Numbered from the stretch's first letter, positions 661 through 15,650 are shown. The stretch is DNA of 15,650 nt from a virus (IMGVR_UViG_2703718817_000011), one strand, 5' to 3'. Notes: a model not told the origin generated them from the letters alone. Made by a program: numbers and translations.

Positions 661-769
661 AGGTGGTGCTCATTCTGCCCGACCGCGCATTTTTGCGCTA
701 TCGGGAATATAAAACAGTTACCGCCGTCAGCTACCCAGCTCAGAATTGAGCCGCCTTTTAATCAACAAG

Positions 770-1051: not shown

Positions 1052-1064
1052 GCTGCTGACCTCA

Positions 1065-2726
1065 TTACACCCCGCTAAATTCTTCCAGTTTCTGGCGGTG
1101 GCTGTCGCTTATATCAAAAGCAAAATCCTCATGCTCTGCCTGGAATGTACCAAACGCCATCAGCGCCGCTACGCTCGGGTCTATCTTGTTCGGTGATTTT
1201 TTCTTGTTCGGCTTGATATTGGCGTTCGCGTCACTCTGCATCACGACGTTACTCATCGACCAGGACAACACCGGATCGCCACGATGCACAATCACCCTGC
1301 GGTTAACAAAAACTTCGAACGATTTCGCCGCCGGACTGAATCTGAGGTAGGTTTGCGGGAACGGCTCCACCTCAAAACCAGCCCCCTGTAATTGCGTCCT
1401 GAGATGCGTGGCGTTCCACGTATCAAAGCCCACCAGCCTGATATTAAATTTCTCCGCATCCTGCATGATGTCATCTCTGATCCGGTCGTAATCAATGCAG
1501 TCACCTGGCGTTGTGCGTATCCAGCCCGCTTTAGCCCACTGGCGATAGACAGCGCGGTTTTTATTGGCGGGGTTCTGTAGCTGGAACTCCGGCAGATAAT
1601 GACGGGAAACCAGCATGATATTTTTACCGACCGGAAAGGCATAGCACACGCTGGAAATATCGCTGGTTGATGATAAGTCCAGCCCCGCGTAACACTCCTG
1701 CCCGTGTAAATCTTCCTCCGTGAACGTTCCGGCACACTCAGCCCATGCGCCGTTACCCATCCACGGGGTAGCCCCCTGGCACCAGATATTAAATCGCTTT
1801 GTCATCATCTCCACCCATTGCGACGGAATACCCCGCGCTTTCTGGATGGTTGAGGCCAGTTTTTCACGATCCACGGAAACATCGATGTTAGGGTTAGCCT
1901 TTATCCACATCGCCGGATCATCAACCTCGTTTTCGTCGTCCAGCTCGTAAATCAGCACAAAAATTGAATCGTTGACCTCTTCGCCGTCCAGGATCTGGCA
2001 GCAATAATCATAGTGCTGTTTACAGGTTGAAACGACGTTACTGCCCGATGTGGTAATGGCAAATAACAGCCCTTCGGGACGTGCGCCCATCCCCAGCTCA
2101 AGCGCGGAATAAACGCCGTTATCGGGGTGTAGGTGGTATTCGTCCACGATGGAAAGGCTGGGGTTTGTTCCCTCGATGGTTGCCGCTTTTGCTGCCAGCG
2201 GCTTTAACAGGCTGTTGCTTTTCGGGTGCATCACCTTGTGGGCCTGAATATTCACCCGCCTGCGTAACGGTCGGGATAAAAGGCACATCTGACGCGCATC
2301 ATCAAAAACGATCCGCGCCTGGTCACGGCTCACCGCTGCGGTGTAAATATCCTGCTGCCCGTTCTCCATAATCAGAAACCAGTTAGCCAGAATCGCGGCG
2401 GTCGTGGATTTCGCATTTTTGCGCGGCACTTCGATAAAGGCGCTCGTGTATTTGCGCCGTCCGGTGGCCTTAACCTTAAAGCCGAGGATGCACGCAAAGG
2501 CGAACTGCTGCCACGGCTCCAGCTCAATGGGTCTGCCACGCATCGGCCCTTTTACGTGCGGGCACACCCTGGAAAAGGCAATAAACCGCTCCACAACCTC
2601 ACGATCGAACGTGTAAAGGGGGCTTTCAAGGTCCGAAAAGTACCGTTTAACGGCCTGTTTCAGCCGTTTACAGGCCGGAATTTTGCCCGTTTTTACGTCT
2701 TCTGCGTACTTATTCCAGGCGGTCAA
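1065..2726 (-). CDS. terL: Terminase large subunit (HK97-type)
   Basis: 553-aa ORF with an N-terminal ATPase Walker A-like segment (VPRKNAKSTTAA) and a C-terminal nuclease-like region; apparent TTG start at 2726 with an AGAGGA SD, overlapping the terS 3' end. Confidence 0.88.
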   Translation of the reverse strand: MTAWNKYAEDVKTGKIPACKRLKQAVKRYFSDLESPLYTFDREVVERFIAFSRVCPHVKGPMRGRPIELEPWQQFAFACILGFKVKATGRRKYTSAFIEVPRKNAKSTTAAILANWFLIMENGQQDIYTAAVSRDQARIVFDDARQMCLLSRPLRRRVNIQAHKVMHPKSNSLLKPLAAKAATIEGTNPSLSIVDEYHLHPDNGVYSALELGMGARPEGLLFAITTSGSNVVSTCKQHYDYCCQILDGEEVNDSIFVLIYELDDENEVDDPAMWIKANPNIDVSVDREKLASTIQKARGIPSQWVEMMTKRFNIWCQGATPWMGNGAWAECAGTFTEEDLHGQECYAGLDLSSTSDISSVCYAFPVGKNIMLVSRHYLPEFQLQNPANKNRAVYRQWAKAGWIRTTPGDCIDYDRIRDDIMQDAEKFNIRLVGFDTWNATHLRTQLQGAGFEVEPFPQTYLRFSPAAKSFEVFVNRRVIVHRGDPVLSWSMSNVVMQSDANANIKPNKKKSPNKIDPSVAALMAFGTFQAEHEDFAFDISDSHRQKLEEFSGV

Positions 2727-3066
2727 GCTCGTCCTCTTCTTCTGTTTCCGGTGGATTTTTACGGCGGCTTATCGGGTCAAAACCGAGCAAAGAGGCCATT
2801 TTTATCATCACTCTTTCAGCGTCGGATTTTGCGCTTAATGCGGGGTTTCTGCTCTCGCCGCCCTGACTGTTAACAATGCTGAACCCGCGCGCCGCAAGGT
2901 CTGCAACGGCTTTCCGGTAAATGGAGTAGTTGACACAATACAGTTCCAGATTGCTCCAGTCGGCGGGGGTCAGGTCTCCCCGTTCCGCAAGCTGCCTAGA
3001 TTTTTCCCGCCACTGCTTCACGGCGATATCATCCAGGTAGGCGGGGGCTTTCGGTGGTCTTGCCAT
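2710..3066 (-). CDS. terS: Terminase small subunit (P27 family-like)
   Basis: 118-aa ORF directly upstream of and overlapping terL; sequence resembles P27-family small terminase subunits (recollection). Confidence 0.75.
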   Translation of the reverse strand: MARPPKAPAYLDDIAVKQWREKSRQLAERGDLTPADWSNLELYCVNYSIYRKAVADLAARGFSIVNSQGGESRNPALSAKSDAERVMIKMASLLGFDPISRRKNPPETEEEDELDRLE

Positions 3067-3188
3067 GCTTATTTTTCGCCAGATTATTTTTCAAAAAATT
3101 CCCGTGCATAAAAATTTGAGGAGGCGTTCGGTGCCCGGCGGGGTCGGGTTGGTCCTGAAAACGCCCCCCACCCCGTCATACAGCCTCA

Positions 3189-3371
3189 TCAGCGATTGCG
3201 GAAACATTCCATAACCTCGCGGTCACGGTCGGTTAATCGCTTCGCTGTGATGCGTTCTGCGCGTCCTGACGCTTTATCTTTATGCCCTGTTTCCTGTGTC
3301 TTCCATGCGTCACGCTGCCTTATAAGTCCACGGATAAGGCGGTTTTGCTCCCGCTCATTCATCAGCGTCAT
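3189..3371 (-). CDS. Hypothetical small basic protein (about 60 aa) between HNH and terS
   Basis: Internal ATG at 3371 (or 3362) of track ORF 3189..3593, overlapping the HNH stop; highly charged sequence; weak SD. Confidence 0.3.
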   Translation of the reverse strand: MTLMNEREQNRLIRGLIRQRDAWKTQETGHKDKASGRAERITAKRLTDRDREVMECFRNR

Positions 3372-3795
3372 ACATCCAGTTATTGCGGTTAGCGGCCCGT
3401 TCTTCCTCTTCACGAAATCCACCTGCGGCACGCTTGCTTTTTGTTGCCGGATCAAGCCATTTCGTTTTCTGGTTATGACACGCCTGGCACAATGGTTGAT
3501 GGTTCCATTCGGGCCAGAAGAGAACATCATCACCGCCATTAATCGGGATAATGTGATCCACCACCACGGCGGGCGTATATATCCCCTTCTCAAGGCATCG
3601 CACGCATAACGGGTTTTTACTCAGATACATGGCGCGGTATTTGTCCCACTGTCTGGAATATCCACGCGCGCGGCGGTGTCCTCGTCTGGCATCCTCTGCA
3701 CGCCATGCCGCCCGCCTGTGCTCCTCACACTTGCCGGATTTAACGCGCCTGTTACAGCCTGGTTCTGTGCATCGTCTTAATGGTTGCCACGGCAT
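3355..3795 (-). CDS. HNH endonuclease (packaging-associated)
   Basis: 146 aa with paired Cys motifs and an HNH core (CxxC ... DHIIP ... N ... H ... CxxCH); located next to terS as in HK97-like cos phages; start overlaps the upstream stop. Confidence 0.85.
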   Translation of the reverse strand: MPWQPLRRCTEPGCNRRVKSGKCEEHRRAAWRAEDARRGHRRARGYSRQWDKYRAMYLSKNPLCVRCLEKGIYTPAVVVDHIIPINGGDDVLFWPEWNHQPLCQACHNQKTKWLDPATKSKRAAGGFREEEERAANRNNWMYDADE

Positions 3796-4091
3796 CAGTA
3801 CACCCCCACATCACGGTAAGCCGTCCAGAGTGCGCCTATCGTCATGGGTACGCGTGTTTTTGCGTTATCCGCGACAATCTGGCGATTTTCATACAGGTGA
3901 GCGATAAACATCATGCAGCCAATCTTTATGGCTGGCGTGAACTCCAGCCCGTCATCAAAGCGCCTGCCTATGTGTATCTGGCACGCCTCAAGCGATGCGG
4001 CAATGTATCCGCTGATTAACTGGTCTTCATCGTCGCCATCGATGCGGCAATGGAGTTTCACTTCTTCCAGGGTGATAAGTTCTTCTGTCAT
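3795..4091 (-). CDS. Head-tail connector protein (gp6-like DNA packaging protein)
   Basis: 98-aa ORF; N-terminal ITLEEVKLHCRIDGDDEDQLI pattern typical of gp6-like connectors (recollection); ATGA overlap with the upstream gene. Confidence 0.65.
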   Translation of the reverse strand: MTEELITLEEVKLHCRIDGDDEDQLISGYIAASLEACQIHIGRRFDDGLEFTPAIKIGCMMFIAHLYENRQIVADNAKTRVPMTIGALWTAYRDVGVY

Positions 4092-4426
4092 TTTTCCGCG
4101 CCCTCACGACAAAGAATTTCAAGGCGTGTCCTGGCGGCATCCGGCAGCGGCTGCCCGATGATATTCAGTACACGCCCCGCCAGCGGCCCCGTACTGACCT
4201 TTATCCGACTGGTGGCGTTGATGTCCTTCCGGTACCGTATCCAGATCCTTACGGTACCAATCGCCAGCTCTGCGCCCGATGAAATGGCCTCCTTGCTGCT
4301 GATCATGTTCACGCTTGCCCAGAGTGTGTGACCGTCCTCCCACGTTTCGAGTATTTCGCCCGTCATGGCTCTGGTCTGTTTCAGGGTCTGAATCGTTATC
4401 CTGTCACGCAGTCGCCCTATGTTCAT
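4088..4426 (-). CDS. Head closure / head-tail joining protein
   Basis: Start taken at the internal ATG 4426, which forms an ATGA overlap with the portal stop; begins MNIGRLRDRITIQ, a hallmark of the phage head-tail joining family. Confidence 0.65.
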   Translation of the reverse strand: MNIGRLRDRITIQTLKQTRAMTGEILETWEDGHTLWASVNMISSKEAISSGAELAIGTVRIWIRYRKDINATSRIKVSTGPLAGRVLNIIGQPLPDAARTRLEILCREGAEK

Positions 4427-5634
4427 TCCGGTTTTTCTCCCTCGCTGATTTTTACTTCCTGTTTCCATGCCTGGCTGAACTCATCACCACCATCACGCGG
4501 TGACAGTCCTTCACGTTCGCGGGCTTCGTTCGGACACATAACGCCGGATTTGATGCCGCGCTCATAGGTGGCAAAGCGTTCGCCAGGTGTGGCCCGTAAC
4601 AGGTCCGCGCTGTCAAACTCCACCTGATACCGGATACCAGGTACAGGCGAGGCCACCAGCAGGGCGTTTTTTATCTGCTGCTCAAAGTTCGCCAGCCACG
4701 GGCGCATCGTCATGGTGAGAAATGCGCGGCTTGCCTCGCTGAAATTGCTGTAGGTGCTGTTGCTGTATTCCTGCAAAAAAATCGGCGAGACGTTGAACAT
4801 TCGGGCGATGTCTTCAATGGTGAAGCGACGGGAGGCCAGCCATTCAGCATCCTGATTACTCATGCCCAGCTGCTGATAGCTCATACCCCCTTCAAGGATG
4901 GGCGTTTTTCCGGCGTTTCTGGCCCCTTTGTAGCGTTCCAGTGCGGCTAATGCCTGTTTGCCCTTCACGCCGTCCAGCCATTCGCCTGACGTGATAACCC
5001 CTGCCGCCATCATGCCATCACGCATCACGCTCGCGCCGTGGCGTTGTTGGGCCAGCCCAAGCCCCAGCGATTCGCGGCAGATGGTTACAGGTGAGCGCCC
5101 CATAAAGCCGTCATCCGTGGAGTAACGAAGGTGAAGTACTTCCCACGGTAAATAGTTGCGGGTGTTTCCGGTGTAGGCGTCAGTGATGCAGTAGCGCCAG
5201 TTGTGTTCGCCTGTCTGCTCCACGTTCACCGACTGCGGCGGGTAAGGATGTAAAGCCGCCGGAAAACCATCACGCCCCCACTGAATCACCGCATAAGCAT
5301 TACCGTTTAACAGGCAGTGGCGGATCATCATTCGCTTAAACTGGTAGGGGGTTTGCCATGCGTTCGGGCGCTCGTTGAGGATGTGATCGACCGGATGAGA
5401 ATCAAGCCACTCGCGGGCCTCCTTCCCCTTCTCATTGCGTACCAGGTACAGGTAACACGGCATGGTAGCCACCGCCTCAGAGATGACCGTGACGGCGTTC
5501 ATGACGGCGGGCAGTGATTCCGCTGTCCCCGATGATACGTACTCACCCGCCCCCGTGTTCGATGTGCCAGCCAGCGCCATAAATTCATCAAGCGTCATGC
5601 TGCGCTGCTCTTTTTTTCTTCTGAAAGGCCACAT
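4423..5634 (-). CDS. Portal protein (HK97 family)
   Basis: 403-aa ORF with portal-family features; GGGGGTG SD upstream of ATG 5634; starts immediately after the protease stop. Confidence 0.88.
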   Translation of the reverse strand: MWPFRRKKEQRSMTLDEFMALAGTSNTGAGEYVSSGTAESLPAVMNAVTVISEAVATMPCYLYLVRNEKGKEAREWLDSHPVDHILNERPNAWQTPYQFKRMMIRHCLLNGNAYAVIQWGRDGFPAALHPYPPQSVNVEQTGEHNWRYCITDAYTGNTRNYLPWEVLHLRYSTDDGFMGRSPVTICRESLGLGLAQQRHGASVMRDGMMAAGVITSGEWLDGVKGKQALAALERYKGARNAGKTPILEGGMSYQQLGMSNQDAEWLASRRFTIEDIARMFNVSPIFLQEYSNSTYSNFSEASRAFLTMTMRPWLANFEQQIKNALLVASPVPGIRYQVEFDSADLLRATPGERFATYERGIKSGVMCPNEAREREGLSPRDGGDEFSQAWKQEVKISEGEKPE

Positions 5635-5635
5635 A

Positions 5636-6208
5636 TCACACCCCCGCTAAATCCACCCACCAGCGGCGATTATCCGCACGCGGCATTTTTTCGGGGTGCT
5701 GCTCATACAGGGAACGGCGGGCCAGCTCCACGCCGGAATCAGGGTAAGCCGGAACGGATGTAACGGTAATTTCGTACAGTTCCGCCACCAGCACGGTGCG
5801 CACGCATGGATCTGTTGTGGTATCCCATACATCCTTACGGGAACGAAAGCCAAAGCTCATGCCGGATATATCACCACGTTTAACCAGTTCGATAACGTCG
5901 CGCCCTGTGCTGGTATCCGGTGGGGTCAGTTCAAAGCGTAACCCTGTTTCGTCCTCTTCCAGTTTCAGCGTGCCGGAACGGGTACGCCCCAGTAACATGC
6001 TGTGGTCATGCTCATACAGGCCGCGAACGTCATTACCCGCTGCAAGCCATTCAGTAAACGCTCCCCGCTGGAATTTTTCGTAAAACTCACCCCATAACAG
6101 TTCTGAAAGCTTATCCCAGCGAACAACGTAGCCCGTCAGCGTACCGGCTCCGCTGGTGGTGATTTCCGATGACCGGATTTCCATACTCTTCATAATTTTT
6201 TCACCCAT
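5636..6208 (-). CDS. Prohead maturation protease (HK97 family, S78)
   Basis: 190 aa with YEHDHSMLLGRT and ISGMSFGF motifs typical of HK97 prohead proteases; alternative starts at 6193 or 6184. Confidence 0.82.
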   Translation of the reverse strand: MGEKIMKSMEIRSSEITTSGAGTLTGYVVRWDKLSELLWGEFYEKFQRGAFTEWLAAGNDVRGLYEHDHSMLLGRTRSGTLKLEEDETGLRFELTPPDTSTGRDVIELVKRGDISGMSFGFRSRKDVWDTTTDPCVRTVLVAELYEITVTSVPAYPDSGVELARRSLYEQHPEKMPRADNRRWWVDLAGV

Positions 6209-6237
6209 AAAACACTAAAGGGGCTTTTAAGCCCCTT
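6204..6237 (-). terminator. Intrinsic terminator-like hairpin after the capsid gene (minus strand)
   Basis: AAGGGGC / GCCCCTT stem at 6218-6237 followed on the minus strand by a U-rich run (UAGUGUUUUAUG). Confidence 0.4.
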
Positions 6238-6247
6238 CTGTATGCTG

Positions 6248-7405
6248 TTAATCGTCGTCCTGTGGCAGTTCCAGAATCTTGATCGCGTTCGAATCCACCA
6301 CGCCACCGCCTAAATATTTCTGCGTGAAAATTTTGATGAAGCCCGGCTCTGTGAGGTTGTCCGGTCTGGTGCGAACACCTGTTTCGTGATCAACAATGTA
6401 GTAACCGCGTTTGAAGTCACCCAGGGCAATAACGTTATCAGGCATAAACTCCAGATATTCGACCGGAAGGCCCAGCAACGTATCAGGATCACCCGCCTGT
6501 AAACGGTCGCGCCAGATGTAATCACCGTTCGCGTTCTTCACCTTCTGAAGTTTTGCCGCCGTCGTGGAGTTAACCACCCAGACCGCGTTTTTGCGGTATT
6601 TTTTACGTAATGCAAATTTCAGGTCGATCAACGGGTCCGCAGATGTCCACGCCAGAGATTCGGAAGGTTTAATTACCTGCAACGTACCAAAATCACGCTC
6701 TTTGTCGTTCTTCTCTGCACGGGGTACGGATAAAAAACCTTTTGCTTTTTTGTCACCGTCGCCCACAACCAGATCGCTTTCTTCGGTTTCCGTGAAGGTG
6801 TCGCCAATCTCACCCGTCAGCCATGAAAGGATGTCCACATCGGAAAAATCCACGATTTCCTGTGTGGTGCGCGGGTACGCATAGACCGGATACAGCTTAA
6901 TGCTCACCTCGTTAATCTGCGGGGTGCTGGTCTGTTCGCGTGTCTTACCCTCTTCACCGTGGTTAACGGTCGCACCGCCAGCGGAAACAAGCTGCTTAAA
7001 CTCGTTGCTGCTGATTTTCTTCACGGTACAGATGCGGCGCATGGTGGACTCATCCGCCAGCATTCGCATGATTTCGGTGTTCAGCTCGGGGATAACGGTA
7101 TAACCACCATCAGCGGGAACGCCTGTACTTAATGCGCGGGTTTCACCCGTCAGAATGTAGTTTCGTAGTTCTGCGGGGTCAGTGGTCTGACTGCTTTTAC
7201 CTGGCTTGCTGCGCTCTTCGTCTGCAATGGCTTCAAGGCGGGAAATGTCTTTATCGAGGGATTCAGCTTTAGCGCGTAATTCGTCAAATTTTGCGCCCTC
7301 AGCATCGTTAAGACTGCGGTTTTCTTTTTCCGCGTTCTCCAGCATGTCACGCATCTGATTTTTAATGGCGGTTTTCTGCTGGCGTAATTCGATTATTCTC
7401 TGCAT
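6248..7405 (-). CDS. Major capsid protein (HK97 fold) with N-terminal coiled-coil delta/scaffold domain
   Basis: ATG at 7405 (the track ORF extends to a TTG at 7450); N-terminal coiled coil about 70 aa long followed by a capsid-family body (GGYTVIPELNTEI...). Confidence 0.88.
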   Translation of the reverse strand: MQRIIELRQQKTAIKNQMRDMLENAEKENRSLNDAEGAKFDELRAKAESLDKDISRLEAIADEERSKPGKSSQTTDPAELRNYILTGETRALSTGVPADGGYTVIPELNTEIMRMLADESTMRRICTVKKISSNEFKQLVSAGGATVNHGEEGKTREQTSTPQINEVSIKLYPVYAYPRTTQEIVDFSDVDILSWLTGEIGDTFTETEESDLVVGDGDKKAKGFLSVPRAEKNDKERDFGTLQVIKPSESLAWTSADPLIDLKFALRKKYRKNAVWVVNSTTAAKLQKVKNANGDYIWRDRLQAGDPDTLLGLPVEYLEFMPDNVIALGDFKRGYYIVDHETGVRTRPDNLTEPGFIKIFTQKYLGGGVVDSNAIKILELPQDDD

Positions 7406-7443
7406 AAAAAAAAGTCCTGGGGTTAAGTAAGGAACTCCAGGAC
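7406..7443 (-). promoter_or_regulatory. Leader hairpin plus U8 tract abutting the capsid start codon (attenuator or SD-sequestering structure)
   Basis: Minus strand reads GUCCUGGAG-loop-CCCCAGGAC then UUUUUUUU then AUG; the only SD-like AGGA lies inside the 3' arm of the stem. Confidence 0.45.
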
Positions 7444-7620
7444 GCGGCAAACACTCAACCGTTTTTCATAAGGAAATCAGCAATCGCACCGATCGTTTTC
7501 CCGCCTGGTAATGAATATTGGCGGGCACATTAACAGGCGGGAAAGTGGCCCCAGCGTCCTGGCACCACGGGCGAGAATAATCATGATTCAGTTCGGGTAA
7601 AATATGCCGATCCGCTCAGT

Positions 7621-7650
7621 GAACAACGTGGAACAACCACGAACAAATAA
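7621..7650 (-). repeat. Three helically phased TTGTTC repeats upstream of the packaging operon
   Basis: Plus strand gaacaacgtg gaacaaccac gaacaaataa; minus strand reads TTGTTC at a 10-bp period; related to the repeats at 251-270 and 14341-14390. Confidence 0.5.
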
Positions 7651-7653
7651 TTT

Positions 7654-7686
7654 ACAAAAAATAACAAAAAGCCGGATTGCTCCGGC
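7654..7686 (-). terminator. Intrinsic terminator after the perC-like gene
   Basis: GCCGGA-ttgc-TCCGGC stem at 7671-7686 followed on the minus strand by UUUUUGUUAUUUUUUG. Confidence 0.55.
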
Positions 7687-7692
7687 TGTTGA

Positions 7693-7965
7693 TTAGCTGT
7701 CTGTGTAATTACGCCATATTTCATCGCTTACACCATCCATACCCATTTCAGCATAAGTGCGATCGACTGCCTTTCTCAGGTCTCCGAAGTTATCCGGCGG
7801 CTCCGGTGGCCTCTGTGCCTTCCTGGAACATTCCAGCCGTCGCATCGTAACCTGATGCCGTTCCTTGTCTGTCTCCACCAGTTGCATGACTTCACCCCAT
7901 CGCGCCGCCGCCCTCCGGTAAAAGCCTTTTGCCTCGAGTTCCTCCGCTATGCGGTCATGTGCCAT
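7693..7965 (-). CDS. PerC-family transcriptional regulator homologue
   Basis: Start at ATG 7965 with a GAGGGGG SD; contains the YRRAAARW motif characteristic of PerC/Pch proteins (recollection). Confidence 0.65.
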   Translation of the reverse strand: MAHDRIAEELEAKGFYRRAAARWGEVMQLVETDKERHQVTMRRLECSRKAQRPPEPPDNFGDLRKAVDRTYAEMGMDGVSDEIWRNYTDS

Positions 7966-7975
7966 CGTCACCCCC

Positions 7976-8386
7976 TCAGAACGGAATATCATCACCGTAA
8001 GGGTCATCGCCTCCCGCTGGTGGCTGATTACCCTGTGTGCCTGTGGCTTTGCGTCTGTTCCCGCCAGGACGTGCCGCGCGGGCACTGATTACGCTGTCCG
8101 CAATAACCTGATACCCCTGCCGTGTTTCCCCGTTCTGTCCGGTCCACTGGCTTACCTGCATCGTGCCGGATACGCTGGCAACATCGCCTTTTTGATGTTT
8201 AGCCAGGAAATCGGCCTGTTTGCCAAATGCGATAACCGATAACCATAACGTCGCCTGTCCGTCATGTGCCTGGCTGCATGGCAACGATACCGCCATACGC
8301 GCCAGAGTCATCGGTGTGCCCTTGCTGCTCTGTTTTACCAGCGGGTCGTCCACCAGCCGCCCGTAAGCTGCAATTTGTGCTGTCAT
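7976..8386 (-). CDS. ssb: Single-stranded DNA-binding protein
   Basis: 136 aa with an OB-fold-like N-terminal region, a Gly/Pro-rich linker and the C-terminal acidic tail DDIPF; GAGGTGG SD. Confidence 0.85.
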   Translation of the reverse strand: MTAQIAAYGRLVDDPLVKQSSKGTPMTLARMAVSLPCSQAHDGQATLWLSVIAFGKQADFLAKHQKGDVASVSGTMQVSQWTGQNGETRQGYQVIADSVISARAARPGGNRRKATGTQGNQPPAGGDDPYGDDIPF

Positions 8387-8395
8387 ATTGCCACC

Positions 8396-8701
8396 TCAGT
8401 GAAGCGATCCGGCGTTGTTCTTTTTCATCTCTTCCATCATTTTTTCAGTGAGCATTACGCACTGAAAACCCATGCTTTTGATGTCTACGGGTTTCATGCC
8501 TTTGTCTGTGGATATCACAGGCAGAATATCCTGATACACATCGCGGTCAGGGTAACTAAGCACACAAAGCGCCCATGATGCCACGGGTGAGGATCCTTCG
8601 TCTGTTTCAACCCACCAGCCTGGTGTAGCTGCGCTTATTTGCAGAATCGTGATCCGTCCGTTGTGCTTGTAAAATTTTTCACCAAATTTTGGTTCGCTCA
8701 T
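8396..8701 (-). CDS. Hypothetical protein (101 aa)
   Basis: ORF with an ATGA overlap to the upstream gene; 10-nt gap to ssb; no recognisable family. Confidence 0.5.
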   Translation of the reverse strand: MSEPKFGEKFYKHNGRITILQISAATPGWWVETDEGSSPVASWALCVLSYPDRDVYQDILPVISTDKGMKPVDIKSMGFQCVMLTEKMMEEMKKNNAGSLH

Positions 8702-8949
8702 GATTCCACCTCTCCGGTTTTAACGTTGATTGTTGTTACCTGTTCCGCTTCGGCAATCTCCCGTTCTGTCAGCGTGGCAAAGTTTGCCGCCGCTGTGGTC
8801 ATGAATGCGCTTATCAGTTCGGGATGCTCCTTCGCGTATCCTTCCCCCGCGTGGCGGTCTATCGTTCTGATTGCCACCTTTAAAGCGTGCTCTGTCATGT
8901 CTAACGCTTTATATTTTGGCTGTGTTCTGTCTCTGCGTTTTTGTGTCAT
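8698..8949 (-). CDS. Hypothetical protein (83 aa)
   Basis: Start taken at the internal ATG 8949 (GGTGGGGAG SD); the upstream part of track ORF 8698..9144 overlaps the iteron region and is probably non-coding. Confidence 0.4.
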   Translation of the reverse strand: MTQKRRDRTQPKYKALDMTEHALKVAIRTIDRHAGEGYAKEHPELISAFMTTAAANFATLTEREIAEAEQVTTINVKTGEVES

Positions 8950-8950
8950 C

Positions 8951-9155
8951 TCCCCACCTATACCCACTTTTACTCCCCACTTTTCACAATTCCCCATCTC
9001 GTTAAAGGCGTGGGATTTGTAATTTTTATCATGCTGTTTCATAAGGATTTTTTTGCTCCCCACTTTTTGGGATGTATACAGGTCAAAAAGTGGGGGATTG
9101 TGTTTAAATTTTGTTAAATTCCCCATACCCACCACTTTTGCCACCCACTTTTTAC
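8951..9155. repeat. Putative replication origin: CCCCACTTTT-type iterons flanking an AT-rich segment
   Basis: At least six copies of CCACTTTT in both orientations (about 8965, 8977, 9060, 9084 inverted, 9133, 9146) around an AT-rich stretch at 9011-9056, immediately 3' of the replication gene. Confidence 0.5.
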
Positions 9156-10561
9156 AGTGGCCCTACATCATCGCCGTCAACATAGATAACGCCGTCTTTT
9201 TCCAGCTTGCCCAGCCAGCGCCGGAAGTGCTTTATTTCGTACCCCAGTTTTTTCATGTCATCACGTAACAGCGGGATCGTGCACTTGTCGCCGTTCTGTG
9301 TGCGTGAACGGATACACCCCCATAGCGCGGTATGGTTTTCCGTCTTGTTGCCTGCCTCTTCGATGCGCTCCAGTTCAACGGGAGGGCGCGGCTTATCCAC
9401 CACCACCAGCGACGTGATTAACTCCCCGTCAGCGTCGGTAAAAAGCTCCACCACCCGCAAATCATAGGCAGCCTCTTTGAGTTCCTCCGCGTCCTTCATT
9501 TTGGTGCATGAGATAACCAGCGCTTCGCTTCCTGCGTCCTCCCTGCGTATCCGGTATTCAGCATCCAGTGATGCACGAAATGCACTGGAACCGCGCGCGC
9601 CTTTCGTCTCATCCTTGCCGGAATGGTGAACCACCAGCACCGTGGCCCCTGTGCGTCGTTTCAGTTCGTCACACCCACGGATAAACGCCCCCATGTCGCG
9701 GGAGTCATTTTCATCATTGCCGCCAAAGCAGCGCGCCAGCGTGTCCAGAATAATCATGCGAACAGGTTTACCCGTTTCCCTCTCCACCTGACTGGCAGCA
9801 ATAACCAGTTCATCAACATCAAGCGGGACAGCCGGAAAGATGGGACGGTTTACCAGATACAGATTTTTCACCTGCTCACCGTGCACAACCTCCCAGGCTT
9901 TTACACGACGCGGAACGCCGATACCGCCTTCACCAACCACATAGAGAACAGCGCCATGCGCCACCCTGCGGCCTCCCCACTGGCGGCCCGTGGAAACGTG
10001 ACACGCCCACGATCCGGCAAGGAATGATTTATAGGAACCGCTCGCCCCGTATATGCTGCAAAGCGACGATGCCGGAATAATCCCCTTTACCACGTAATCA
10101 AGTTGTGTGTCGTATCCGGTAGATCCAACGCTCATCGGTAGCGTGGTTTTTCGCTGGGGGATTTTTTTCATGACCAGGCTTTCCCCGCGTTCCCATGCCT
10201 CCCTAAGCCGTGGAAGCTGGTCGCTCCATTCCTCCAGCAATTCGAAATTTTCAGAAAGTAGCCGCGCCTCCTGGACTCCGGCGATCGCCAGTTTCGTGGC
10301 GATGGTTAACAGCTGCGGCTCTTCAATATTTCCGGCGCGTATCACCGTCGCCCTGTATCGCCCATCATCAACAATCTGGAGGTTATCCAGTTCGCTTAAC
10401 TGATAACGCCCCAGATAAACGGGAGGGACTGGATCGCCTGCTTTTTTGGCCTGTGCAATGATGTAATGCTCTGCGAATGAGTGAGCATCAATACCCGCAA
10501 AAATAATCGCATCGGTGTATTTGTCTTTCGGTAATAGTTTTACGTTCGGTGCCAGTTTCAT
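9152..10561 (-). CDS. Replication initiator/helicase-type ATPase (AAA_25/RepA-like), candidate PICI Pri-Rep
   Basis: 469 aa with Walker A GASGSYKS, Walker B-like MIILDTL and an HHSGK motif typical of AAA_25 RecA-like replication proteins; N-terminal domain about 150 aa of unknown type. Confidence 0.7.
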   Translation of the reverse strand: MKLAPNVKLLPKDKYTDAIIFAGIDAHSFAEHYIIAQAKKAGDPVPPVYLGRYQLSELDNLQIVDDGRYRATVIRAGNIEEPQLLTIATKLAIAGVQEARLLSENFELLEEWSDQLPRLREAWERGESLVMKKIPQRKTTLPMSVGSTGYDTQLDYVVKGIIPASSLCSIYGASGSYKSFLAGSWACHVSTGRQWGGRRVAHGAVLYVVGEGGIGVPRRVKAWEVVHGEQVKNLYLVNRPIFPAVPLDVDELVIAASQVERETGKPVRMIILDTLARCFGGNDENDSRDMGAFIRGCDELKRRTGATVLVVHHSGKDETKGARGSSAFRASLDAEYRIRREDAGSEALVISCTKMKDAEELKEAAYDLRVVELFTDADGELITSLVVVDKPRPPVELERIEEAGNKTENHTALWGCIRSRTQNGDKCTIPLLRDDMKKLGYEIKHFRRWLGKLEKDGVIYVDGDDVGPL

Positions 10562-10857
10562 TTTTTACCCCTGAATCCGTTAATCATGGTTTTCAGCTTC
10601 TGGATGTTTGCCCGTGCCCTGACGTTGCTGGTGGGCACGTTATGCGGCGCGGTCTGTACCAGAGAAAAATCACGCCGGAACTGATAAACAGGCATCACGC
10701 AATCATATTCGTAACCTTCACGGCGGTAAGTTACGCACCGTCCCGCCACGCCCTTAATCATTACCGTGCCGCCGTACTGGTCGCGGTAAATATCACCGCG
10801 CGTAAATTTAGGGTGAGTGTTGCCACTGGCAGTTAAGCCAGAATATTTAAGTTTCAT
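10558..10857 (-). CDS. Hypothetical protein (99 aa)
   Basis: ATG 10857 with a GGAGAA SD; ATGA overlap with the rep start. Confidence 0.5.
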   Translation of the reverse strand: MKLKYSGLTASGNTHPKFTRGDIYRDQYGGTVMIKGVAGRCVTYRREGYEYDCVMPVYQFRRDFSLVQTAPHNVPTSNVRARANIQKLKTMINGFRGKK

Positions 10858-10862
10858 TATTT

Positions 10863-11096
10863 TTATTCTCCGGTGTGCTGTTCGTTATATCTGTCGTGCA
10901 ATGTCTCTATTTCCTGCAACTCATTTATTACAGGCTCAAGAAGCGTTATTAATGCCGTGACAATTCTTGATTTTTGTTTGTCGCGTTCATTGTCGCCAAG
11001 TGTTTCAAGCCATATGCGCAATATTTCCAGCATGTTTTCACTGTGAGAAAGTGCAAGAAATACGCGTTCTGTTGTTTCGTGGTAAATATCACGCAT
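10863..11096 (-). CDS. Hypothetical protein (77 aa)
   Basis: ORF overlapping the upstream gene by 8 nt. Confidence 0.45.
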   Translation of the reverse strand: MRDIYHETTERVFLALSHSENMLEILRIWLETLGDNERDKQKSRIVTALITLLEPVINELQEIETLHDRYNEQHTGE

Positions 11097-11322
11097 GGCT
11101 TACATCCTCAGGAAATTTTCTTCTGTAACGCGCCTCTGCCACATATTCCGCATAATCGGCGGCGATATTCAGTACATCAAGTCCCGTTGATTTATATTCT
11201 TTCGTGGAAAGTAAGAAAAAAGCCGCTCTAATAAGTTCTGGCATTGACGAAAGCGCATCAGCCGCATCATCAGATACGCCGGAAAATTCTTGTTTCAGGG
11301 AATAAAAACGATCATCACGCAT
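11089..11322 (-). CDS. Hypothetical protein (77 aa), possibly the C-terminal part of a gene split at a G9 tract
   Basis: ATG 11322 lies 2 nt after a 9-G homopolymer (minus strand); no properly spaced SD. Confidence 0.4.
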   Translation of the reverse strand: MRDDRFYSLKQEFSGVSDDAADALSSMPELIRAAFFLLSTKEYKSTGLDVLNIAADYAEYVAEARYRRKFPEDVSHA

Positions 11323-11555
11323 AACCCCCCCCCATTTTCACAATCAGCAATCAGGATAGCTTTGGCCTCATTCAGCGCCATATCAGCACTAAGTTGCATA
11401 ACCGCCAGCGAATGAGGAACGAAAGCCCCGGCATATTCTGTTTCGCTGGTGGCGTGCTTATGTGCCCTGTCCGCGATAACAGAAATATCAATCAGCGCGT
11501 GCATCAGCGTTTTGATGGCTTCGGCGGCTGCGTCCGGTGTGGTTTTATTGTGCAT
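11295..11555 (-). CDS. Hypothetical protein (86 aa), possibly the N-terminal part of a gene split at a G9 tract
   Basis: ORF ends in a hydrophobic tail (LCVMIVFIP) right after the homopolymer; a +1 G would fuse it in frame to 11089..11322. Confidence 0.4.
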   Translation of the reverse strand: MHNKTTPDAAAEAIKTLMHALIDISVIADRAHKHATSETEYAGAFVPHSLAVMQLSADMALNEAKAILIADCENGGGLCVMIVFIP

Positions 11556-11757
11556 AAAGCATCCCCTGAATATTCGTGTTAATCATTCCGGCACGTTTTG
11601 TGATTTCCTGTAATGATTCCCTTGTGGCGACAATTGCTTCATCTGGTAAGTGGTAATTACACACCACGCGACCTTTATCCACATTGACCAGTAGCTGCCC
11701 TGTGAATTTCTCACGAAACTGAATGCGGTTAAGGTCAGTAAGTGACAGATTAATCAT
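11545..11757 (-). CDS. Hypothetical protein (70 aa)
   Basis: ATG 11757 preceded by a strong AGGAGGTG SD and overlapping the upstream stop. Confidence 0.5.
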   Translation of the reverse strand: MINLSLTDLNRIQFREKFTGQLLVNVDKGRVVCNYHLPDEAIVATRESLQEITKRAGMINTNIQGMLYAQ

Positions 11758-12307
11758 GGCGCACCTCCTGACGAATACGGGCGGCAAATACAGCAACACA
11801 ACCGGACGGGCAACGGTTACGCGCTTCGCGTTCCGTCCAGGCGGTTACGTGGATGATTTGATGGTCTGACGCGCCAAAGGCAATAAAGCGCCAGATAAAG
11901 GCTGTTTGAGAATGTACGAGGGCAGGGGTAGTAGCCATGTTGGCAGCCTCCTCAGTGTGGTTAAGATAACCGCCACGCAAAAGGCTAATTTCGCTGGTGG
12001 CGGACTGTACAGGGTTAGCCTTACCGGACACTGAAGAAACCGGCGCGGATTGCTCCGCCCCCGTACAGCCCACCATTGATAAGGTGTGACTATGCGGCAC
12101 AAAAAAACACGCGGGACGCGTGCTGTGCGCTTCAGTTGTTTTCAGGAGGCTAATCCCGACACCCGTTTTATGAGGTGCGCGGGAATCATAGCTATTTTCG
12201 ACACTGGCGATCAACTGGTTTTTTTCTCCGATATTCAGGGCCAGAAAACGCCACACAAAGGCAGTTTGTGTGTGTACAAGGTGTGGTATATGATTTACAG
12301 CAACCAT
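11750..12307 (-). CDS. Icd-like (P4 host cell division inhibitor-like) protein with tandem duplicated domain and internal start
   Basis: ATG 12307 with an AGGAG SD; two copies of an LVH(T/S)QTAF(V/I)WRF segment; second in-frame ATG at 11938 has its own GAGGAGG SD; Icd-like call from recollection of P4-like island proteins. Confidence 0.5.
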   Translation of the reverse strand: MVAVNHIPHLVHTQTAFVWRFLALNIGEKNQLIASVENSYDSRAPHKTGVGISLLKTTEAHSTRPACFFVPHSHTLSMVGCTGAEQSAPVSSVSGKANPVQSATSEISLLRGGYLNHTEEAANMATTPALVHSQTAFIWRFIAFGASDHQIIHVTAWTEREARNRCPSGCVAVFAARIRQEVRHD

Positions 12308-12398
12308 AACGGCTCCTAGTTTACGTTGTTGGTTAGAAGCCCTGCGAGTGGTAACGACACTTGCGGGGCTTTGTCTTTTCATCGATTACCTTGATAAA

Positions 12399-12487
12399 GG
12401 TGTCAGCCACTATATTAGTAACGGGTGTCAGCCACGTCAATAGTGTTTTTCCGTTTTCTTGTGTGTATACTGTCAGCCACCTAATAA
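12399..12487. promoter_or_regulatory. Divergent promoter/operator region with three direct repeats of GGTGTCAGCCAC
   Basis: Repeats at 12399-12410, 12424-12435 and 12470-12480; minus-strand TTGACG-17nt-TAATAT (12435-12440 and 12412-12417) with a repeat in the spacer; plus-strand TATACT (12466-12471) or TTGTGT-17nt-TAATAA. Confidence 0.45.
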
Positions 12488-12501
12488 CGAGGAAATCAGA
12501 T

Positions 12502-12681
12502 ATGGCAACAAAAGCAGTTAATGCAAAATCCAAAAAGCTTGAGGCTCGAGTACCACACGCAATAGCTGATGCTGTAGAAAATTTAAAGGAAGATGGCGAA
12601 AGTACAGGGCAATTTATCGTTTCGGCACTTGAAGGCGAGATCAAACGCCGCCAGCGCCGCAAGGCCAAAGAATCAGAATAA
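12502..12681 (+). CDS. Ribbon-helix-helix (CopG/Arc-like) DNA-binding protein, 59 aa
   Basis: ATG 12502 with a GGAA SD; predicted beta-strand/helix/helix layout (KLEARVPHAIADAVENLKEDGESTGQFIVSALEGEIKRR); divergent from the replication operon. Confidence 0.55.
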   Translation: MATKAVNAKSKKLEARVPHAIADAVENLKEDGESTGQFIVSALEGEIKRRQRRKAKESE

Positions 12682-12738
12682 TCACTATCAGCGCCGTGGT
12701 GTGAGGTACTACGGCGCATTGCTTTACAGGGCAGTATC

Positions 12739-12966
12739 ATGACCAACAACACACTATCACCAATACAAGACACGCAAACGCAAGATGATGAATTCATCCG
12801 GCAAAGGCAGTCAGAAGCCTGCGCCAGACTTGAGGAAGAACTAACCAGAACAAAAATACCACCACCAGCGCCGCGCTTAGTGCCACCAGAAAAATTTGCC
12901 CTTGAAGATTTTGTCGATAAATACCCACGGCGGCTTAAATCCGGCAAAAACCGACCGCCAGGATGA
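12739..12966 (+). CDS. Small protein of unknown function (75 aa), partner of the upstream RHH gene
   Basis: ATG 12739 follows the conserved 44-nt hairpin element; paralogous to 13423..13626. Confidence 0.45.
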   Translation: MTNNTLSPIQDTQTQDDEFIRQRQSEACARLEEELTRTKIPPPAPRLVPPEKFALEDFVDKYPRRLKSGKNRPPG

Positions 12967-13084
12967 GTGCACAAAACCGAACTATGAAACGGATTATTCC
13001 GTTTCCGGGGCGTTTGTGTGTGTATAAAGAGTAAGCTATGCTCTTTTATAGCCATAATCGTTCCTCAATTAATGGTTTGGTTAG

Positions 13085-13128
13085 ACGCCCCGTATGTGTT
13101 CCCATCACTGCGGGGCGTTGTTTTTTGT
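13085..13128 (+). terminator. Intrinsic terminator after the first RHH module
   Basis: 8-bp GC-rich stem ACGCCCCG / CGGGGCGT followed by TGTTTTTTG. Confidence 0.5.
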
Positions 13129-13185
13129 GCTAGTTGTGTGTAATGTGTATATACACATAAACACATTATATGGGGTGTAATTGAC

Positions 13186-13365
13186 GTGTCAACACACAAA
13201 AATGAAAGGCGTGGTAATCCTCCTTTCCAGTTCCGTTTAGATCCTGACTTACGGGAAAAGATGGAAAAAGCACAACAACAAGACGGTGATGACTCTTTAG
13301 CTGCTTGGATAAAACGAATAATCCGAAAAGAATTACAGCAACGCGGTATTGAACCCAAAGAATAA
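13186..13365 (+). CDS. Arc-like ribbon-helix-helix protein, about 59 aa (start uncertain, GTG proposed)
   Basis: Not in the ORF track (below 60 aa with a non-ATG start); hand translation gives VSTHKNERRGNPPFQFRLDPDLREKMEKAQQQDGDDSLAAWIKRIIRKELQQRGIEPKE, resembling P22 Arc; GGGGTG SD-like 8 nt upstream. Confidence 0.5.
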   Translation: MSTHKNERRGNPPFQFRLDPDLREKMEKAQQQDGDDSLAAWIKRIIRKELQQRGIEPKE

Positions 13366-13422
13366 AAAACATCAGCGCCGTGGCGTGAGGAACTCCGGCG
13401 CATTGCTTTACAGGTACACACA

Positions 13423-13626
13423 ATGACCAATAAAGAATCAACCAATACACCATCGCAAAAAACGAACAGAGAGCACGAAAATATGGCGCTCGAGCATGAA
13501 TCAGAAAGATTCGCTCCATGCGCTTTTGTCCTTGATGAGTTTCTAAAAAAATATTCACGTTCTGAACGGATGAAAATGGCAGCACAATACGGCCCCAACA
13601 AGCAAGGTAATTGCCCACCAGCCTGA
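13423..13626 (+). CDS. Small protein of unknown function (67 aa), paralogue of 12739..12966
   Basis: ATG 13423 follows the second copy of the 44-nt element; both proteins start MTN and share a C-terminal F(A/V)L(E/D)(D/E)F..KY.R motif. Confidence 0.45.
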   Translation: MTNKESTNTPSQKTNREHENMALEHESERFAPCAFVLDEFLKKYSRSERMKMAAQYGPNKQGNCPPA

Positions 13627-13699
13627 TAGCGGCTATCATTCCCGTGCTTATGTTTGGGATCACATACACATAAGGCGCAGCAGGTTAATTGTTCAGAAA

Positions 13700-13728
13700 G
13701 GCGGCTCCATATCGGGGCCGCTTTTTTT
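13700..13728 (+). terminator. Intrinsic terminator after the second RHH module
   Basis: GCGGC / GCCGC stem followed by seven T. Confidence 0.5.
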
Positions 13729-13869
13729 ATGCCTGAAAAACCCCAATTTTGTTGTTTTTCAGTTTCACCAGGGCGAACGAATCCCCGCCCACGTTCGGGC
13801 GCATATTCAATCTTCATAGTTATATCTCTGTATTAGTGGATGTGTGGCGACTGTGTGCCGCCAGTCTTT

Positions 13870-14058
13870 TTAGTGAACTGCCTTGCAGCTATCCTTCCAG
13901 GCCAAAACCTCAGATAAAGACCAGCCAACAGAACGCCCACCAAGTTTACGACGTGATGGGAATTGTCCGGCCTTTTCCAGGCGGTAGCGGCATGAGCGGC
14001 TAAGGCCTGTTAGCTTTTCGCATTCTTTTTCACGTATAAACCGATCAGTGCTTAACAC
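13870..14058 (-). CDS. alpA: AlpA-family phage regulatory protein (excisionase/transcriptional regulator-like)
   Basis: 62 aa, apparent GTG start with an AAGGGGG SD; winged-helix excisionase-like sequence (LTGLSRSCRYRLEKAGQFP ... GWSLSEVLAW); downstream of and co-directional with int. Confidence 0.78.
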   Translation of the reverse strand: MLSTDRFIREKECEKLTGLSRSCRYRLEKAGQFPSRRKLGGRSVGWSLSEVLAWKDSCKAVH

Positions 14059-14219
14059 TATTGCCCCCTTTCGTTTCTTAAAGAGTTATTTCGTGTTCTA
14101 TTGCGTTGGGATGTGTCTGATTGTGTCAGGATGATTCAGAGTTGGCAAATGTTGGTGTCGCATGGTTTACAGAAAGAGGAATAATCAGGATAAAATCATT
14201 TAAATTCATGTTAATACAA

Positions 14220-14249
14220 AGGCATAAAATCTTGTTTTATGCCTTTTTT
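14220..14249 (+). terminator. Strong stem-loop plus T-tract in the int-alpA intergenic region
   Basis: 10-bp stem AGGCATAAAA / TTTTATGCCT, 5-nt loop, then TTTTT; could act bidirectionally to end int transcription. Confidence 0.45.
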
Positions 14250-14340
14250 CGCACACTTTAACGCGTAATTCACTAATGTATAAAAAACCAGCTGAGCATT
14301 AAAAATCAGCAACTTACAAATCTGTATTCTTTTTGGCCTC

Positions 14341-14390
14341 TTGTTCGTGATTGTGTCACGTTGTTGCACATTGTTTCTCGTTGTATCTGT
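14341..14390. repeat. Five helically phased decamers each beginning TTGT
   Basis: ttgttcgtga ttgtgtcacg ttgttgcaca ttgtttctcg ttgtatctgt with an exact 10-bp period, between int and alpA. Confidence 0.55.
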
Positions 14391-14432
14391 GCACTTATCC
14401 AGTATGCGCATACTGAAAAAACACGAAAAAAA

Positions 14433-15650
14433 TTATTTTATTCTGGTTACTGGTAGCGTGGTTACGTTTTCATGTGTTCCCGCCAGTATCTCCAACCGCT
14501 CCACCCACATATCAAGCGCATTGCGTTTCGCATCAATATAGCGGGAATGGTTGTACACGCGTTGCATTCCTGGCATCTGGTGGCCTGTAAGCTGCTCCAC
14601 GACGTGAGGATCAACGCCTAAATCGTTCAGCATGGTTGTAAAGGTGCGCCGGATGTCATGCAATGACCATTGAGGGTGTTTTAGCCTCCTGTGCGCTAAT
14701 CTGCCGTACTGCGATACGCTAGCCTCCTGTTTCACTTCCCCCAGTAATAAGCCCGTGTGCCTGTTCTGGTCCACCAGCCGCGTGACGAACGGCAGGATCG
14801 CTTCCGGTATGGGCCGGAATATTGCAACCTTCGTTTTGCTGTGCTCCTTCGGAACGGTCCATAGCATTTCGGTAAAATCCCACTCGCTGATCTCCGATAA
14901 CCTCAGTTCTACCGTCCTGGCTCCGAAGACAATCAGGAGGCGGATTAACGCGACGTAGTAAGGAGAAAATATTTTTTTATCCAGCGCCTGCAATAACTCG
15001 CCCAGTTCTTTGGTGCTTAAGACACGTTCGCTTATATCCGGTTTTTTCCCAACGTCCGCCACGTTCAGATCATCGAGAACGTTGCTGATTGCAAAGCGCC
15101 GCCTCCGGCAGAACTTAAGCGCCTGCTTGCATGTCTGTAGCACGAATCCGGCAGTAACAGGTGTTCGCTTTGCCACCTGGTCAAAACAGGCCAGCCAGTG
15201 CCGTAGCTCGCATTTATCCAGCGGCATAGCGCCAATGTACTGTATTACGTGATTATTAAGTCGCCTTTTCAGGGCGATATAATCCACGCGGTTTTCCTTT
15301 ACGTACGACTCAAGCCAGTAGGTGAGCGCATCGCCAACCGTTACCGGCTTTAACGCTTCCTGTACGGCGTAATTCATCTCATGGCGTGGATTTTTCCCCT
15401 CCGCCAGCCATGCGCGACACTGGGCGGCTTTTTCCCTGGCTGCTTTCAGGCTCAGATCAGGATAATTTCCCAGCTTAATACGTTCCGGTCGTGTCTCTCT
15501 TCCCGTTCCTGCCCTGTAAGTGAAATACCAGGTTAATTTCCCTGATGTTAAATATTTCACGCTCAGATTTCCGCCATCGCTATAAAACGTGTTTTTCTCC
15601 GCTGGCTTACCATGAAGTTTCCTTAGCAAGGTATCGCTCAGTTTGTTCAT
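14433..15650 (-). CDS. int: Tyrosine-type site-specific integrase (phage/P4-like family)
   Basis: 405-aa ORF whose start codon is the last three bases of the window; C-terminal catalytic signature HDIRRT ... H ... Y and an N-terminal arm-binding-like domain. Confidence 0.9.
   Translation of the reverse strand: MNKLSDTLLRKLHGKPAEKNTFYSDGGNLSVKYLTSGKLTWYFTYRAGTGRETRPERIKLGNYPDLSLKAAREKAAQCRAWLAEGKNPRHEMNYAVQEALKPVTVGDALTYWLESYVKENRVDYIALKRRLNNHVIQYIGAMPLDKCELRHWLACFDQVAKRTPVTAGFVLQTCKQALKFCRRRRFAISNVLDDLNVADVGKKPDISERVLSTKELGELLQALDKKIFSPYYVALIRLLIVFGARTVELRLSEISEWDFTEMLWTVPKEHSKTKVAIFRPIPEAILPFVTRLVDQNRHTGLLLGEVKQEASVSQYGRLAHRRLKHPQWSLHDIRRTFTTMLNDLGVDPHVVEQLTGHQMPGMQRVYNHSRYIDAKRNALDMWVERLEILAGTHENVTTLPVTRIK

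Follow-up and report, generated by a model that had tools for sequence, protein, structure and literature searches.

A repeat-bearing Icd-like reading frame of a phage satellite spans regulatory RNA genes arranged as in the P4 eta/kil/CI region

The window analysed here is the whole 15,650-nucleotide stretch (positions 1-15650) of the viral sequence IMGVR_UViG_2703718817_000011, whose gene content, judged by profile matches, is that of a capsid-forming satellite resembling phage-inducible chromosomal islands (PICIs). The first gene of its leftward operon is an open reading frame (ORF) on the minus strand, 11750..12307, which can be translated without a stop into 185 amino acids and which contains two copies of a short repeat. 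Between the repeat copies lie an internal promoter-like site, an isrK/seqA-like RNA with its terminator and a C4/CI-type antisense RNA, all of which were overlooked in a preliminary description of this locus; they are followed by a seqC-type target on the ribosome-binding site (RBS) of a nested, in-frame ORF of the Kil/Icd type. In a satellite of the P4-like or PICI type, this locus probably serves immunity and early control and follows the plan of the eta/kil/CI region of P4, with the long ORF as the predicted counterpart of P4 eta.

Both RNA genes were detected over their full length by Rfam models. The isrK/seqA-like RNA (12102..12178, minus strand; RF01394, 61.6 bits; gathering score 50) consists of two hairpins with the elements b1 (AUUAGCC, 12154-12148) and a1 (AACUGAAG, 12137-12130) and ends in an intrinsic terminator, identified by a terminator scan, in which a stem at 12124-12106 is followed by a U run (to 12102). 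The C4/CI-type RNA is encoded next on the same strand at 11993..12080 (RF01695, 75.4 bits; gathering score 45). Its minimum-free-energy fold is the Rfam consensus structure, with a' (UUUCUUCAGUGU, 12039-12028) in the loop of hairpin 2 and b' (UAAGGCUAAC, 12023-12014) in single-stranded sequence. Downstream at 11947..11989, again on the minus strand, is the equivalent of the seqC (a2b2) target, with b2 (AUUAGCC, 11989-11983) and a2 (ACACUGAGGAGG, 11958-11947), the latter including the Shine-Dalgarno (SD) sequence GAGGAGG (11953-11947) of the short ORF. The internal promoter-like site (TTGATC-18-TATGAT, 12185..12214, minus strand) was found inside the long ORF by a sigma-70 consensus scan. It agrees with the consensus at 9 of 12 positions, its -10 box ends 7 nucleotides 5' of the isrK start and it is kept in most related loci; the PLE region of P4 has the same location, and the site may be the positional analogue of PLE. 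Two further Rfam matches over the isrK region were set aside, one to Trp_leader (18.7 bits, E = 0.87) that is below threshold and was taken as chance, and one to c4-a1b1 (16.1 bits, also sub-threshold) that reflects the relationship between isrK and a1b1.

We calculated duplex energies to examine pairing between these elements. Within a 700-nucleotide region, the best duplex of the C4 loop a' is with a2, over the SD sequence of ATG 11938 (11958-11947; −20.1 kcal/mol), and the next best reaches −11.4 kcal/mol. The single-stranded GGCUAA of the C4-like RNA complements UUAGCC twice, once at 11988-11983 and once in isrK, where it lies in the hairpin 2 loop, and the duplex of b' with the isrK-like RNA has an energy of −14.5 kcal/mol. 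Across 10 specificity types, P4 included, a1b1 of isrK, a'b' of C4 and a2b2 of the RBS change together in a three-way manner. In one locus (L003; comparison loci are cited by their L numbers) b is switched at all three sites and a is retained. Cognate duplexes in 10 loci were on average more stable than non-cognate ones, both for a2b2 (−31.9 vs. −23.1 ± 4.0 kcal/mol) and for a1b1 (−33.5 vs. −21.7 ± 4.5 kcal/mol). There is thus strong comparative evidence that the C4-like RNA would act on the internal start site, ATG 11938. The RBS of the long ORF was considered as a third C4 target and rejected, its duplex with a' (−10.0 kcal/mol) being at background level.

The preliminary description was right that an in-frame ATG with its own GAGGAGG sequence would give a product of 62 amino acids: the start codon at 11938-11936 follows the SD sequence after 8 nucleotides and opens the short nested ORF 11750..11938 (minus strand). 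It was also right that this product is Icd-like. The 62-residue sequence matches the NCBIfam model NF033153 (phage_ICD_like) with 64.2 bits (E = 8.3e-18; cut-off 25 bits), and within the long ORF the same model covers only residues 137-180, which belong to the short product; the N-terminal 62 residues of the long ORF, including copy 1 of the repeat, gave no NF033153 match. P4 Kil (E = 1.6e-21) and a P1-like Icd (E = 2.6e-13) are recognized by this model as well. BLASTP of the short product against P4 Kil found no match, and their kinship is visible only through the NF033153 profile and the alignment of the long proteins (185-residue product vs. P4 Eta, E = 5e-7). Pairwise differences at codon positions 1, 2 and 3 of the short ORF (0.108/0.100/0.204) follow the pattern of a coding sequence (CDS), and PGAP annotation in E. 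coli relatives includes exactly the 62-residue CDS. AlphaFold models the product as a beta-beta-alpha-beta fold (mean predicted local distance difference test score, pLDDT, 71) in which copy 2 of the repeat (11921-11879) forms the first beta strand. A Foldseek search of the PDB with this model returned no match at E < 0.37, and the structure gives no mechanistic clue for Icd/Kil. For P1 Icd and P4 Kil, a block of cell division or cell death upon expression is known from the literature.

A plus-strand feature was also observed at the RBS of the short ORF. A promoter-like sequence, TTGGCA-16-TAAGAT (11940-11967), lies antisense to it. Its -35 box and the SD-to-ATG spacer (GCTGCCAAC; GCTGCCATC in P4) are reverse complements, and this spacer is strikingly conserved across all cassettes examined. 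This site might drive an antisense RNA ending at the terminator-like hairpin at 12336-12372 described below.

The same models and the same nesting are found in P4 itself. In the P4 genome the C4 model falls on the CI gene (8507-8420) and the isrK model on the seqA region (8692-8615), both inside ORF 8812..8168, whose last 65 codons are Kil, starting MATT after AGGAGG, and whose long form is Eta. According to PMC10111431, eta (197-199 amino acids) and kil (65 amino acids) are nested over PLE, seqA, CI and seqC (Forti et al. 1999; Sabbattini et al. 1995, cited there), with CI lying within eta and Kil being a truncated Eta. The long and short isoforms proposed in the preliminary description therefore have a documented counterpart in P4 eta/kil. 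Common to both loci, in this order, are the start of a long ORF, an internal promoter or promoter-like site, an isrK/seqA element with its terminator, C4/CI, a target over the SD sequence and an in-frame short ORF beginning ATG GCT AC...; both short products fall into a single NCBIfam family, and the Pfam family Phage_ASH matches the same middle segment. They differ in pairing specificity, in the number of nucleotides that separate the short ATG from the 5' end of isrK (240 here vs. 327 in P4) and at the N-terminus, where P4 Eta has no Icd-like stub; a shared N-terminal repeat in P4 Eta was tested for and is not there. The upstream promoter of P4 follows a translationally coupled, alpA-like gene, whereas the promoter-like site here lies in a divergent region, and the cassette is carried by a PICI-like island that encodes capsid proteins rather than by a P4 with sid, psu and delta. 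C4 and isrK models have been reported to detect CI/seqA relatives inside Phage_ASH genes of PICIs, which were read by the eta/kil model (Mageeney et al. 2023, PMC10111431). The window is an island of the kind for which that paper describes Bro-zone immunity RNAs of PICIs and helper-embedded PICIs.

P1 and P7 likewise have a C4 RNA upstream of a gene of the Icd family, with the a2/b2 target at the RBS of that gene. Their immI operon reportedly comprises the c4 antisense RNA, icd and ant. In a P1-like phage we found C4 directly upstream of a 73-residue Icd, and the isrK model gave no match at the gathering score at that locus. Unlike immI, the operon studied here has no antirepressor gene (ant) after icd, the next ORF being one of 70 amino acids without a family match.

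Upstream of ATG 12307, the start codon of the long ORF, is an SD sequence (AGGAG, 12313..12317, minus strand; 5 nucleotides 5' of the ATG), and both are preserved in relatives with differing leader sequences; a longer variant could start at ATG 12382, a codon not kept in relatives. In eleven loci the short ATG lies 240, 243, 246 or 327 nucleotides from the 5' end of isrK, always a multiple of three; the long frame is free of stops, and the two others contain 2-9 and 0-5. DNA similarity alone retrieved L001-L003, all of which keep the full 185-residue frame open, and protein searches returned 233 long homologues, down to ~50% identity. Among six distant cassettes in other prophage contexts, found by DNA similarity, three are interrupted by stops and three stay open, running on in frame into another gene downstream. 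Because half of these cassettes have stops in that frame, its openness is evidently not automatic.

The middle of the long product nevertheless carries no sign of a protein domain. Pairwise differences at codon positions 1, 2 and 3 of the cassette region (0.297/0.258/0.310) show no coding signature, and in an AlphaFold model built with a 64-sequence alignment residues 1-132 have pLDDT values below 50 and no secondary structure, residues 133-180 forming the beta-beta-alpha-beta unit. The long frame is probably open for the passage of ribosomes over the RNA elements and not to encode a folded domain, so that it is the translating that matters. An alternative is that only the 62-residue protein is made and that the long frame is an untranslated leader, stop-free by chance of its conserved RNA sequence. 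This reading would account for a middle region with neither coding signature nor predicted fold, for the closed frame in three of six distant cassettes and for the PGAP annotation of L001-L003, in which a 62-residue Icd-like CDS is accompanied by 'ash family' pseudogene pieces. We nevertheless consider it unlikely, given that the spacing varies and yet always remains a stop-free multiple of three while the two other frames have stops in most loci, that a good SD sequence and ATG are kept upstream despite unrelated leaders, and that fusions of differing length to an icd remnant (see below) are independently in frame. In P4, moreover, eta is translated from the upstream promoter only, and its translation averts termination and was shown to be needed for read-through (PMC10111431).

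The lack of a folded middle domain also bears on the relation to Ash that the preliminary description had suggested alongside Icd. Profile matches to both families were found, but the Ash match is to translated RNA genes and not to a folded domain. Pfam PF10554 (Phage_ASH; 44.4 bits, gathering score 26) covers residues 40-133 of the long ORF (DNA 11909-12190), which are encoded by the promoter, isrK, C4 and target DNA, and the 'invariant' residues of the Ash alignment (APHKTG.GI, MVGC.G, NPVQS) are translated conserved RNA stems. In P4 (L004) PF10554 matches Eta (residues 21-145; 8330-8704) and not epsilon, which matches PF25738. Phage_ASH thus appears to model the translation of RNA genes. 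PF10554 has served as the marker of epsilon ('Ash') in the detection of P4-like satellites (PMC8628076); this marker therefore detects the RNA immunity cassette, not epsilon.

The two LVH(T/S)QTAF(V/I)WRF copies noted in the preliminary description are located at residues 10-21 (LVHTQTAFVWRF) and 131-142 (LVHSQTAFIWRF) of the long ORF. At the DNA level the repeat is 43 nucleotides long (12281-12239 vs. 11921-11879) with identity at 32/43 positions and a spacing of exactly 360 nucleotides, or 120 codons; its local alignment score of 36 exceeded those of all 300 shuffles (16.4 ± 1.9, maximum 24). The interpretation of this repeat as a protein-domain duplication does not hold, however. Copy 1 is a stub of 14 amino acids with no Icd profile match and no predicted structure, and it is present in only ~19 of 120 homologous long ORFs and absent from ~100 of them. 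Other long homologues have shorter relics (YIWRFLAL...) or unrelated N-termini. A longer remnant, about two-thirds of an Icd-like protein, is kept in L009, L016 and L018 (...HTQTAFVWRFIALS.AQPRVIHI.ATSEQEARQ, then KN...), where it joins the cassette at a shared KNQLIA point that encodes the -35 box.

An uninterrupted version of this gene is present in Shigella flexneri (L005; CP182556.1, 1501-1701), the sole locus returned by a scan of genome contigs with the long protein. It shares the leader, SD, ATG and copy 1, but copy 1 runs directly into the rest of an Icd-like protein of 66 amino acids (NF033153, E = 6e-18), and neither isrK nor C4 is present. Contiguous matches to this cassette-less allele occur in several complete E. 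coli genomes (H111-H117), and alleles with and without the cassette coexist in E. coli/Shigella. In several islands a second complete module follows directly after the first icd, as an ORF of 155-170 amino acids starting M(L/R)KN.L that has its own promoter, a1b1, terminator, C4 of different specificity, target, SD and nested Icd-like gene (L001 1027-1494, minus strand; L006 1754-2221; L013 623-1087; L014 1697-2206; L018 1802-2269). Because the stubs vary in length, the L005 gene is uninterrupted and tandem modules exist, copy 1 is, by sequence comparison, the 5' remnant of an icd paralogue that was fused in frame to the next module by varying deletions. The first 28 residues of the long product would accordingly be an old icd 5' end that supplies an RBS and a start codon, and the preliminary suggestion of a fusion of two genes holds in this evolutionary sense, with the 5' end coming from a separate icd-like gene. 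The available part of PMC10111431 makes no mention of an Icd-like stub, cassette-less alleles or tandem second modules.

Copy 1 (PLVHTQTAFVWRFLA, 12239..12281, minus strand) holds a perfect palindrome, CACACAAA-CTGCC-TTTGTGTG (12272-12252). The 8-bp arms arise from precisely those T and V codons by which copy 1 differs from copy 2, and as an RNA hairpin copy 1 is the more stable of the two (−9.9 vs. −5.4 kcal/mol). Its core (12243-12272, CACACACAAAC(T/G)GCCTTTGTGTGGCGTTTT) is nucleotide-identical in all carriers compared (L001-L003, L005, L006, L016-L018), with no synonymous change in 30 nucleotides except for one loop base, and the flanking codons have strongly diverged. It is possible to see in this invariance, and in the mostly synonymous or conservative differences between the two copies, a long product that functions as an Icd protein with two motifs, or that acts on the short form as modulator or antidote, with a role of its own for the LVHxQTAFxWRF strand. 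We regard this as highly improbable: invariance at the nucleotide level suggests recent recombination, or a constraint on DNA or RNA, and not protein selection, copy 1 amounts to only the first beta strand of a small fold and is modelled as disordered, and its absence from most long ORFs, together with stubs of varied length, is the pattern of a decaying remnant. The palindromic core could serve as an operator, form a hairpin in RNA or mark a recombination junction. A further layer of control might exist, in which the palindrome and the antisense terminator upstream serve as a regulator site and/or in an antisense transcript that could cross the C4/isrK region, or in which the in-register icd repeats are recombination handles that could switch the island between RNA-immune alleles, which have the cassette, and immunity-less alleles, which lack it; we consider such a layer rather doubtful.

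The cassette itself is widespread. isrK and C4 occur together in 2667 of 5426 complete E. coli genomes, and one genome can hold as many as 10 such places. The genes joined to the cassette vary (Icd-like, Rha-family, ORF6N and others; L020-L025 among the loci), often with the same junction ...EAA(N/I)MAT(T/I/V). This distribution suggests that the isrK+C4 cassette is a portable regulatory module.

Upstream of the long ORF, a consensus scan identified a second promoter-like site (TTGACG-17-TAATAT, 12412..12440, minus strand) in the divergent intergenic region. A transcript from this site would cover the long ORF from its start codon on, and by its position the site may correspond to P4 PLL. Three exact direct repeats overlap it, GTGGCTGACA (12401-12410, 12426-12435 and 12471-12480, minus strand), which are candidate operators; the three exact copies lie within 80 bp, against an expectation for the whole window of 0.85 with one mismatch allowed. 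The divergent gene at 12502-12681 (plus strand) encodes a YlcI/YnfO-family protein of 59 amino acids (NF041551, E = 1e-16) and is, together with the repeats, a candidate repressor/operator pair for the early operon. An overlapping ORF with a TTG start (12361..12681, plus strand) was considered, but the supported gene there is the 59-residue one. The leader also contains a hairpin (12336..12372, plus strand) that resembles an intrinsic terminator, with a U tract on the plus strand, antisense to the operon. In six loci its stem is preserved by different sequences and is more stable on the antisense (plus) strand (−23 to −27 kcal/mol) than on the sense strand (−13 to −20 kcal/mol), so that it may be read as a conserved intrinsic terminator facing the operon.

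By analogy with P4, P1 and Gifsy-1, we infer promoter activity, RNA processing, Rho termination, anti-termination by translation and an induction signal for this locus. In the resting state the internal promoter (12214-12185) would yield the isrK/seqA-like RNA, with most transcripts ending at its own terminator, and transcripts that read through would be processed to the C4/CI-type antisense RNA; RNase P is the enzyme that processes C4/CI RNA. Pairing of a'/b' with a2/b2 over the GAGGAGG sequence would block translation of the 62-residue Icd/Kil-like protein and, because the blocked transcript is untranslated, it would be open to Rho and the downstream replication genes would remain off. The C4-like RNA could also pair with a1/b1 in the isrK-like leader. 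Upon induction, the operator-covered upstream promoter (12440-12412) would fire and ribosomes from ATG 12307 would cross the terminator, C4 and target, preventing these structures and pairings and allowing the whole operon to be expressed.

Gifsy-1 of Salmonella offers a different precedent for part of this scheme. There IsrK, a structural homologue of P4 SeqA with a processed C4-like RNA (STnc1160) encoded downstream, is a trans-activator of translation (Hershko-Shalev et al. 2016, PMC4825925). Gifsy-1 resembles the window in the sequence of its parts: an isrK-type RNA that has a promoter of its own and ends at a leaky terminator, then a C4-like RNA, then an RNA-controlled ORF. The isrK-like RNA might thus act here in trans, opening the RBS of the read-through transcript and activating the downstream ORF, rather than mainly as a C4 decoy or termination site. 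A match to the isrK model above its gathering score, and the fact that both the mechanism and STnc1160 downstream of isrK have been described, are consistent with this mode. In Gifsy-1, however, orf45-anrP control antQ, whereas no orf45-anrP-antQ set is found here, the downstream genes being those of Icd-like and small unknown proteins, DUF4222 and a RepA-like helicase; PMC4825925 describes no long and short Icd products nested in each other, and the gene order and nested Icd/Kil ORF fit P4. We therefore give the Gifsy-1 mode a low probability, although it is compatible with the P4-type scheme and the two are not mutually exclusive.

Several considerations weigh against the P4-type reading of the locus. 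Both promoters are consensus matches only, and a YlcI/YnfO gene with GTGGCTGACA repeats stands in place of the delta/Ogr-activated PLL of P4. Since Gifsy-1 IsrK activates and does not repress, the sign of the isrK-like effect here is uncertain. Most of the long-ORF homologues in the frame argument come from protein searches, which are biased toward open frames, and PGAP treats the upstream part of the long ORF as a pseudogene.

The next gene of the operon (11545..11757, minus strand; 70 amino acids) had no Pfam or NCBIfam match. Because its ATG at 11757 overlaps the stop of the Icd-like ORF by 8 nucleotides (ATGATTAA), it is likely to be translationally coupled to the 62-residue ORF. Profile matches elsewhere in the window identified genes for TerL (1065-2726), HNH (3355-3795), portal (4423-5634), prohead protease (5636-6208), major capsid protein (6248-7450), SSB (7976-8386), a RepA-like AAA_25 helicase (9152-10561) and integrase (14433-15650), and a DUF4222 gene downstream of the cassette; ANT, Bro and KilA domains were not found by profile searches of the window ORFs tested. 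Near-identical copies of the island are present in E. coli. Between the integrase gene and the regulatory region are two minus-strand ORFs, 13065-13817 (250 amino acids) and 12333-13055 (240 amino acids), neither of which had a Pfam or NCBIfam match. The second is probably spurious: no matching CDS is annotated in L001 or L003, and it overlaps the YlcI/YnfO gene and the promoter region.

The eta/kil/CI architecture was already known from P4 and has been noted for PICIs, the family is very common, and the P4 mechanism is left unchanged by our results. The additions are modest, namely the origin of the icd stub, the cassette and cassette-less alleles, the tandem modules and the reading of Phage_ASH as translated RNA genes. 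What had looked like a duplicated Icd-like protein of 185 amino acids is better read as a regulatory RNA cassette that is translated across, followed by a toxin-like protein of 62 amino acids, a cassette that annotation pipelines label variously as an 'ash family protein', a pseudogene or a long Icd-like protein. Through their three-way covariation, the a/b sites sort these cassettes into immunity types, from which cross-immunity among satellites and prophages could be predicted.

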